A stretch of DNA of 64,000 nucleotides, from the NCBI GenBank assembly GCA_964016885.1, contig OZ024752.1:48608001-48672000 (forward strand), given 5' to 3'. The position numbers and the translations under genes are program-made. A model generated the notes under the pieces. That model searched no databases. It was not told the DNA's origin and was given only the letters and a program-made list of their open reading frames with translations. Shown here piece after piece: positions 26,751 to 29,404 of the stretch. The stretch comes from Eledone cirrhosa (taxonomy: Eukaryota). The stretch's first letter is position 1, and every line of letters begins with the position of its first letter.

Positions 26751-27810
26751 ATTTTGAGTTGGATTTGAACTCGAAACATACAGGAAGAACTGCTGCTAAA
26801 TATCTCATGTAATTCTTCCCAACCCTCAACCAATTTTGTTACTTCAGTGTCCTAAAATACATTAAAATAAAATACAACATATAAATTTTTTTTTTTTTTA
26901 TTTTATTTTATCTCTCTTACTTTCCATAATAATTTTACAACCCTGTTTTAAAAAAATCTTTATTCATTTAAACAAAAAATTAATTTTTTTTTAAGATAAA
27001 AAAAAAATTCAACTTTTAGAATATGATGGAGAAAAATATTTTAAAAATTCTCTCTCACTAAATGGACAGTCCACATGATTGGTGCCAGTTTCAATAAAAA
27101 CCACAAGGTCTACTATCAGTCCCCTTTAATTACTTAAGAAGGTATTTCTAAGGCTAGTCTATAATAGTGGTCATTTCTTATAATGTCTTTCCTGTACAAA
27201 CCATATTCTTTGTTTTCTTTTCATATTATTAATTTTTATTTTGTCATTCTTTATTACAACTGAAATACAGCTATTCAAATTTGATAACAATCACCAAGCA
27301 AGCTCTTGAAAATGCATATTTTTCTTGCTAATGGTATAAAATACTAGTTCAAAGGATACTGTCAAAAATGTCAAATATATTTTTATATAATTAATTTGAA
27401 TGTGGGCATTGGATAAATAAATCCTTAATGTAGCAAAAACTGCATCATAATGACTGGCTTTTCTTTTGGGGATTAGTAGATATTTCAACTCCTAACAACT
27501 ACTAACCTGTCACAATGTTCAAATGAGACCCACAATAGGGTACTACTTACATATCTGGGATGGTGATTTTTAAAGGACTTTGTACAGAATGTATAGAGAA
27601 TGTATAGAAATTGAACATAGAATAACCACAATAGATTCCTAGGGAACATTCTTTTACTTAGACTGTCAGAAGTTTCTTCTATATCTGGCTATAAATGTGG
27701 TTCAATGGTTCAACCGTGAAAGTGTAAGCTAAGTCCAGACAGTCAGGGCCATATTTAGACTTTGGGGAGCCTGGGGCAGTTCATATAACAACACACGCAC
27801 ACACACATAT

Positions 27811-27948
27811 ATATTTAATATAGAAATGGCTTATACAGGACTAGAACTGTTTCATTCGGGAGAAATCATGAGGAAAGCTGGCTCTCCTGATGATTTCTCC
27901 CAAATGAAACAGTTTTAGTCTTGTAGAAGCCACTTCTATATTAAATAT
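27811..27948. repeat. ~138-bp imperfect palindrome (probable Penelope-like inverted remnant)
   Basis: ~59-bp arms with about 5 differences; CTGATGA (27887) ... GAAAC (27906) in the right arm. Confidence 0.75.
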
Positions 27949-28983
27949 TTATACCCTGGTATGTATTAAGTACCTTACTTACTGTGGTTACCCCCGATTG
28001 AACCTGGGATAAACATATATATATATATATATATATTAAAATAACAGATTAAAGTTTAAGCAAAGAATCACTGCTTTCACCCTTAACGAGATCTTCTGCT
28101 CTAGGGTTCTTATATATTTGATATATATTTATCCTTATCGAGCTCTCTTTGGATTTTAGTCTTCAAATATATTATTATTACTATATATATATATAAATGT
28201 TTGCACATATATATATACACATATAAGGAGCGAGAGGGGGGGGGGGGCGAGACTGAGAGAGGGGGGGGCGAGACTGAGAGAGAAGGGACCCTGTTCAGAG
28301 CTGAAATGAGAGGAGGGCTCTGTCTGATGATGGGGGCCCTGAGCATTTGCCCCTACTGCTCTCCAATAAGACTAGCTGTGCAGACAGTTTTGTTTTCAAA
28401 CAGTCATTGACACATTTCACATTAAACTACTTTTACAATCATTCCTATTTGTAAAAGCTGAAATCTAAAATACAACAGAAGCTAATGGAAAAATAAAATA
28501 TTTCCTTTGTCTCAATTAACTTTATCTTGAGAAGTAATAGGCTTTTTCTGTATGTTAAGTATATAACAGAAAATTGATGTATTTCATGATTCCAACCAGC
28601 AATACCATCTATCTTTGTTTGGACTCTTCAGGTGAATAATTCTTCTACAAAGGTAAAGTTTATTGTACATATGTTCTTCCATATACCAGCACTCAAAATG
28701 GTTGGAAATTTCAAATATATATATGCCAATGCTAGCATGGAAATATATATATATTAAATGGTTAGTTTCAGAAGATCCCGTTAAGGGTGAAAGCACCGAT
28801 TCTTTGCTTAAACTTTAATCTGTTATTTTAATAAATATTTGCTCTACGGTTCTTATATATTTGATATATATTTATCCTTATCGAGCCCTCTTTGGATTTT
28901 AGTCTTCACATTTATTATTATTACTATATATATATATATATATATAATATATAAGATCAAAAGATGGTTAAATGAGTTCCATG

Positions 28984-29054
28984 TATTTTATTATGCGCAT
29001 TTCAAAAACAAATATCATCATGCAATAACATTTGTGTTTTCATCAGATAAAATA
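28984..29054 (-). ncRNA. Type-I hammerhead ribozyme (left arm)
   Basis: Stem I TATTTTAT/ATAAAATA, core CTGATGA, 16-bp stem II, GAAA, palindromic stem III ATGCGCAT, AUA triplet. Confidence 0.8.
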
Positions 29055-29171
29055 GGAGGACATGATATGAAGGTTAAAAACACTTGTGGATAGTGCAGTT
29101 TTAAATCAACATATGTTGATTTAAAACTGCACTATCCACAAGTGTTTTTTAACCTTCATATCATGTCTCCC

Positions 29172-29242
29172 TATTTTATCTGACGAAAACGCAAATGTCA
29201 TCTCATGATGATATTTGTTTTTGAAATGCGCATAATAAAATA
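29172..29242 (+). ncRNA. Type-I hammerhead ribozyme (right arm)
   Basis: Stem I 29172-79/29235-42, CTGACGA 29180-86, stem II 29187-202/29207-222, GAAA 29223-26, ATGCGCAT 29226-33, predicted cleavage after A29234. Confidence 0.8.
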
Positions 29243-29365
29243 CATGGAACTCATTTAACCATCTTTTGATCTTATATATTATGTATACACCAGTTCTACA
29301 AACTGTAGAGTGTTTCTTATCCGATATCTGCATTGCTTTATTGTACTACAATAAAACTCACCTCC

Positions 29366-29404
<39 letters not shown>

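Follow-up and report, generated by a model that had tools for sequence, protein, structure and literature searches.

The 339-bp palindrome at 28944-29282, carrying a hammerhead motif on each strand, raises the question of what it is and how it was formed. Sequence comparison identifies the locus as a non-coding head-to-head stub of a Hydra-clade Penelope-like retrotransposon (Penelope-like element, PLE). The reading favoured here, at a probability of roughly 0.7, is that a single insertion event produced the stub: reverse transcription was primed from each strand of a cut (TA)n repeat, and the resulting pair of cDNAs became linked through their ends. The window denotes the whole 64-kb stretch of DNA that was analysed.

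Structure of the palindrome

The segment aligns to its own reverse complement around a centre at 29112/29113, bearing out the sequence-only reading, which had described a spacer-less 339-bp palindrome. The arms differ by seven substitutions and one indel, standing in the arm alignment where that reading had placed them; its view of these differences as tolerated mutations particular to the locus does not hold, each being a common allele in the element family. Overlooked at that stage were a further 87 nt of element sequence (29283-29369), present on the right arm only and followed by a (TA)n run, which make the insertion about 425 bp long and asymmetric. The short-arm haplotype at this locus lies 1-2 changes from other copies. 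The parts of the locus, with strand and basis, are the following.

28925-28943, unstranded: (TA)n target run, left end (sequence)
28944-29114, minus strand: short arm, from element +1 as far as the proximal 3′ terminus at about +170 (arm comparison)
28984-29054, minus strand: short-arm type-I hammerhead motif, predicted cut after 28992 (motif scan)
29111-29114, unstranded: 4-nt overlap ATAT in which the two arms coincide, the family's fixed end at +1 (junction counts)
29111-29282, plus strand: long arm, pLTR part, +1 to about +172 (arm comparison; rare haplotype)
29172-29242, plus strand: long-arm type-I hammerhead motif, predicted cut after A29234 (motif scan, folding, alignment)
29172-29179/29235-29242, plus strand: stem I of the long-arm motif (motif scan)
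29180-29186, plus strand: core of the long-arm motif (motif scan)
29187-29222, plus strand: stem II of the long-arm motif (motif scan)
29223-29226, plus strand: GAAA of the long-arm motif (motif scan)
29226-29233, plus strand: palindromic stem III of the long-arm motif (motif scan)
29283-29369, plus strand: 87-nt tail, part of the element 5′ UTR between the proximal and distal 3′ termini (at locus L065 it continues into an 821-aa frame)
29370-29404, unstranded: (TA)n target run, right end (sequence)

Identity of the element

Candidate matches to the right arm number in the hundreds in the 3.0-Gb genome, and upstream of arm copies lie about 1.1 kb of 3′ UTR and then GIY-YIG and RT frames, in agreement with the earlier proposal of a young head-to-head Penelope-like remnant. 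When the genome was searched with part of the RT, many long open frames came up among the 150 candidates scored out of 36,240. All 12 loci chosen for long frames hold an RT and GIY-YIG frame of 818-908 aa, the adjoining frame that the sequence-only reading had proposed to look for beside genomic copies. At these loci arm and tail are contiguous with the frame (12/12), the arm lying downstream of it at 11 of 12 and arm plus 87-nt extension directly upstream at several. Positions 29283-29369 of the window correspond to this extension and belong to the element 5′ UTR, that is, the PLE tail.

The full-length relatives possess the single ORF with RT and GIY-YIG that characterises an endonuclease-positive PLE; the window does not, and tblastn of its 64 kb found no piece of the element ORF. 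The architecture is that of PLEs, with partial tandems of the pLTR, inverted 5′-truncated copies and an optional tail, and a preference for (TA)n insertion is evident, nearly all outer ends examined adjoining such a run. The Hydra clade is defined by an RWK-type motif, DKT, CxCx5C, CxxC/CxH, a C-terminal endonuclease and no CCHH (PMC8557442). The element protein carries RW at 58-59 (the third residue being T, not K), DKT at 144-146, the CxCx5C linker as CNCRIKNKC at 680-688, CxxC and CxH as CNLC at 780-783 and CLH at 808-810, and a C-terminal endonuclease, with no CCHH; the 821-aa frame at L065 carries YRDD. Among 15 aligned of 25 homologues, RW, DKT, YRDD, CxCx5C, CxxC and CxH are conserved and CCHH is absent.

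In Pfam, GIY-YIG was matched on a protein fragment at 18 bits, below cut-off, and among 16 aligned homologues RVT_1 was matched on one and GIY-YIG on one; Pfam and PDB searches, the former with the whole element protein, gave no match. Given this weak profile support for the RT, the clade assignment rests on the motifs and on a by-eye likeness to Hydra-1_Obim. Domain order and motifs ruled out assignment to Naiad, Neptune or Poseidon. The element is a new family within a known clade, and the single locus is an ordinary one. Separately, other Penelope-like RT or GIY-YIG frames were seen beside family copies, at L033:817-1905 (minus strand), L032:3-461 (plus strand), L030:2111-2860 and L011:1-633.

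Arm haplotypes

Within pairs, arms differ at a median of 1 site per 162 nt, as against 11 between loci (20 pairs), and paired arms have private variants in common. The window arms are two different haplotypes, with seven differing sites that are all common family alleles, and the right-arm haplotype is rare, having 4 exact matches at 3 loci. The same two haplotypes occur together at locus L002, with the tail on the other one. Discordance at no fewer than 6 sites was found in 4 of 39 palindromes, two of them retrieved through the window's rare haplotype.

On balance, the use of two RNA templates in one insertion event at the window locus is somewhat favoured. The arms may instead differ through later gene conversion from another copy, a possibility that bears on the two-RNA step only and deserves serious weight without being preferred. 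It would account for the clustering of the seven differences within 36 nt of the hammerhead and for two flanking diagnostic sites common to both arms, but three loci, each on its own contig, carry the rare haplotype, and at two of them it is paired with the same partner haplotype, the tail having changed arms, a pattern that, in this small sample, suits a replicating source. The arm-to-arm divergence of 0.9% is not twice the tail's private divergence of 1.1%, leaving room for some later arm-to-arm conversion.

Fixed arm ends at +1

Arm ends were counted in an unbiased sample, the first 101 arms on contig C1, with +1 set at window position 29111. At +1 itself 16 arms end, and 8 more end at -1 via the palindromic overlap (24/101); another 24 ends fall at various points between +2 and +103 and 5 between -2 and -37, while the remaining arms run further or can no longer be aligned to the references. 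Across the whole genome, the palindrome centre has 563 exact copies; 3,824 arms start at +1 lacking the genomic C, 2,143 have a G just before +1 in place of the genomic C, and 4,278 read through +1, the ratios among these counts being rough because the search patterns differ in length. Junctions between two +1 ends contain one base in 277 cases genome-wide (G/C in 48 of the first 50) and two bases in 72. Arms ended at +1 also join partners in the tail, hammerhead or ORF, i.e. at many positions, showing that the fixed end belongs to the arm.

A G before +1 is what would be expected if reverse transcriptase adds a C opposite a cap. Several junction inserts are copyable from nearby element sequence, and in the rest, a set partly picked by hand, G is the final base in 10 of 15; as evidence for a cap, this G is no more than suggestive. 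From the fixed arm ends, +1 is likely the 5′ end, or start, of the transcript. Transcription of Drosophila Penelope starts inside the pLTR from an internal promoter (PMC2377424).

Two-primer insertion could also be kept with +1 as a joining hot spot or RNA processing site rather than a transcription start. ATAT, lying inside CATATG, matches the partner or the TA target, exact palindromes and (TA)n joins use this microhomology, and many junction inserts are locally templated. This alternative is nevertheless unlikely, as ATAT at -41, -29 and +48 shows nothing comparable (3/101 arms at +47), the 2,143 arms bear G instead of the genomic C, and among 50 two-base junctions tallied by eye one continues the genomic sequence and none is GC.

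About half of the arms, some of them tailed, do not stop at +1 but extend into the 3′ UTR. These read-through arms need a second kind of template, whether tandem, circular or arising by strand transfer, for which hammerhead cleavage and ligation, as proposed in PMC4209133, could be the source.

Long and short arms and the insertion model

Two 3′ termini lie in the 5′ UTR, a proximal one at about +170 and a distal one at +256 to +259, and the arm 3′ ends on C1 are bimodal, with 50 short, 45 long, 4 running into the ORF and 2 broken (n = 101). The 39 short palindromes were collected by centre or similarity searches, none chosen on 3′ ends, and all 36 that could be scored combine one tailed with one untailed arm; two are a duplicated pair. 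Head-to-head pairs within 7 kb on C1 (n = 30) comprise 25 long/short and 2 long/long, the rest being 1 mis-scored through a tail deletion and 2 unscorable. The simplest reading is that each insertion uses both start sites, one per target strand.

Poseidon of Anolis (PAc) resembles the window family in several respects: in vitro, its protein, predicted to form a dimer, cuts and extends both strands at an AT-rich target and uses uncleaved RNA, with reverse transcription starting at two internal sites bounding the tail (PMC11167929). PAc belongs to a clade other than Hydra and has a tail of 30-40 nt; its start sites did not differ between strands, which counts against the model set out below, and the sections of that report drawn on here describe no long/short rule and no fixed 5′ end.

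The observations are the element identity, the pair of 3′ termini, the constant arm end at +1, the combination of a long with a short arm and the two haplotypes; from these we infer the following steps. The element RT-endonuclease would cut both strands of (TA)n, with one primer taking the distal start (+256 to +259) and its counterpart the proximal start (~+170), both in the 5′ UTR of uncleaved RNA. Both cDNAs would run off the capped 5′ end at +1, and their ATAT ends would anneal or be end-joined, producing a spacer-less palindrome. At the window locus, the two cDNAs would have been copied from two different RNA molecules. The hammerheads would ride along because they are located between +1 and the start sites.

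It is highly improbable that the palindrome itself moves as a non-autonomous unit resembling a retrozyme or MITE, each copy deriving in full from a master that was already palindromic. The 563 exact centres and the same pair of arm haplotypes in the window and L002 are what such copying could leave, but palindromes occur in many haplotypes with matching arms, these haplotypes are common to ORF-bearing copies, junction inserts vary, the tail at L002 sits on the other haplotype, and each outer end coincides exactly with an element terminus in (TA)n.

The single-insertion reading may be extended, tentatively and with some doubt, to a PLE that integrates as a two-RNA, two-polymerase particle, in which a dimeric RT-endonuclease holding two transcripts would use the proximal and distal starts on opposite strands and two strong-stop-like cDNAs would be joined, the transcripts possibly being paired via the palindromic stem III.

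Hammerhead motifs and the predicted read-through duplex

A strict scan of both strands of the window gave two matches, one per arm, with cores at 29180 (plus) and 29046 (minus), each comprising an 8-bp stem I, a 16-bp stem II with one C-U mismatch, AUGCGCAU and AUA. The type-I motif that the sequence-only reading had described in each arm is thereby confirmed, its cleavage as a prediction; a bulged hammerhead from a different family, at about 27880-27932, escaped the scan. Of 200 shuffles of the right-arm motif, 199 fold less well than the motif itself (z -3.06). The covariance-model check proposed earlier did not recover it: among 37 Rfam matches at E<=1 there was no hammerhead model, only miRNA-like hairpin matches below gathering scores, attributable to the hairpin. 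Co-folding of two copies predicts a dimeric hammerhead with intermolecular stems I and III, lying 13.3 (right) or 11.7 (left) kcal/mol below two monomers, in keeping with the idea of a motif built to pair as a dimer.

The 29-mer spanning the 3′ half of the hammerhead core has 21,234 exact copies genome-wide. In an alignment of 20 hand-chosen distinct but related rows (8 of sister families, 12 of the window family), N7 is the only core position that varies, pairing in stems I and III is 100%, 8 pairs show two-sided change and stem III is self-complementary throughout; the shuffle test on this alignment is inflated by the related rows, and for the sister families the register of stem II is not certain. 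Intact cores are the norm in the family. As a further observation, sister families with long-stem-II hammerheads and an AU-only palindromic stem III were found at L085:1072-1152, L066:8513-8592, L128:1171-1250 and five more (among 70 of 106 distinct matches).

The window motif has A-U in place of the G10.1-C11.1 pair of the type-I hammerhead. The table published for the Hydra clade often shows U at 11.1 and triplets with a final A or U, and gives stem II as 3-7 bp (PMC8557442 supplement), so that, of the two traits first regarded as atypical, only the 16-bp stem II is unusual.

The ribozyme and the duplex had been expected to compete in read-through RNA. The read-through hairpin is predicted at -255 to -266 kcal/mol versus -18 for the ribozyme, and the antisense arm is transcribed first in any read-through RNA, from either strand; with the duplex favoured by > 200 kcal/mol, the ribozyme would be masked rather than competing. 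A free hammerhead could come only from transcription starting at the palindrome centre. A selected RNA switch between ribozyme and dsRNA, for which the two intact cores speak, is scarcely tenable, given this duplex preference and order of transcription, a locus that is one of hundreds of young copies with intact cores as the family norm, and no clear host gene identified around the palindrome in the 64-kb window.

Reads from other samples

Reduced-representation DNA reads and contigs contain the element family in other samples, with depth at the centre following restriction sites. An assembly fold-back artefact can practically be dismissed: those runs listed no read-level joint across the exact centre, but the arms differ at seven segregating alleles, the tail is on one arm only, both arms end in separate (TA)n runs, and 98 raw reads of another sample, sharing one start, connect a +1-terminated arm with position 29339 on the opposite strand. 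As an observation in its own right, the tail bears three changes (29289, 29295, 29313) missing from nearly all reads of other samples, in contrast to the window arms, which lie 0-1 base from their nearest relatives.

Neighbouring repeats

At 27807-28015, the window holds a second head-to-head palindrome, of another family, with 72-nt arms, a 2-nt spacer and a tail on one side only. Its short-stem hammerhead motif is intact on the plus arm and core-mutated on the minus arm, and its family has 14 distinct matches among the retrieved loci. Two pieces of a third (TA)n-bounded repeat family, short-inverted and long, occupy 28029-28198 and 28769-28925; this family, with 42 distinct matches among the retrieved loci, has a hammerhead-like fold with core CAGAAGA rather than CUGANGA. 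By eye, a short stretch at 28600-28651, lying about 290 bp before the palindrome, has one open frame and is flanked by a pyrimidine-rich CAG and AAG/GTAAAG; it may represent a small exon of the host.

Comparison with known systems

Hydra-1_Obim and Penelope-13_HM, Hydra-clade PLEs described in PMC8557442, share with the window family the C-terminal GIY-YIG, RW, DKT and CxCx5C, as well as CxxC and CxH with no CCHH, the (TA)n target and a hammerhead near the 3′ end. The window family differs in a unit of about 3.9 kb against mostly < 3 kb, a stem II of 16 bp against 3-7 bp, the 87-nt tail and > 20,000 hammerhead copies; compared by eye and unaligned, its N-terminus and hammerhead are clearly different from those of Hydra-1_Obim. 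The minimal and dimeric PLE hammerheads of metazoans (PMC4209133) are likewise type I, with a palindromic stem III and pLTR position, whereas the window motif has A-U not G-C at 10.1-11.1, U-A at 15.2-16.2, a much longer stem II and a stem I of 8 bp.

Non-LTR retrozymes (PMC7229834) are also small, non-coding, equipped with a type-I hammerhead and probably PLE-mobilised, but they are head-to-tail tandem repeats giving circular RNAs, whereas the window holds a head-to-head piece of an autonomous element. In place of head-to-tail monomers independent of an ORF element, its parts are the pLTR and 5′ UTR of that element.

Opposite-strand hammerhead pairs in such elements are already published: PLE pairs 100-700 bp apart were reported in PMC4209133, and Penelope-13_HM is listed with an inverted 5′-truncated copy and a hammerhead on each strand (PMC8557442). 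The literature covered, with subscription papers and Repbase outside its scope, yielded no fixed 5′ end, twin-priming account or two-haplotype arms of PLE inversions.

Significance

The origin of the inverted and tandem structures of PLEs is named as an open question in PMC8557442. The fixed midpoint and the one-long-one-short ends likely record simultaneous copying into the two strands of a TA repeat. With its thousands of copies, this young family provides three testable rules, namely a fixed +1 end, a long and a short arm, and occasional two-haplotype arms, along with intact open frames suited to in vitro tests. The genome is implied to hold many hundreds of near-perfect 170-bp hairpins, each a potential dsRNA if read through. 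Should the two-RNA particle prove true, the hammerhead would be an RNA-pairing signal as much as a nuclease, and two-haplotype copies like that of the window would be heterozygous products.
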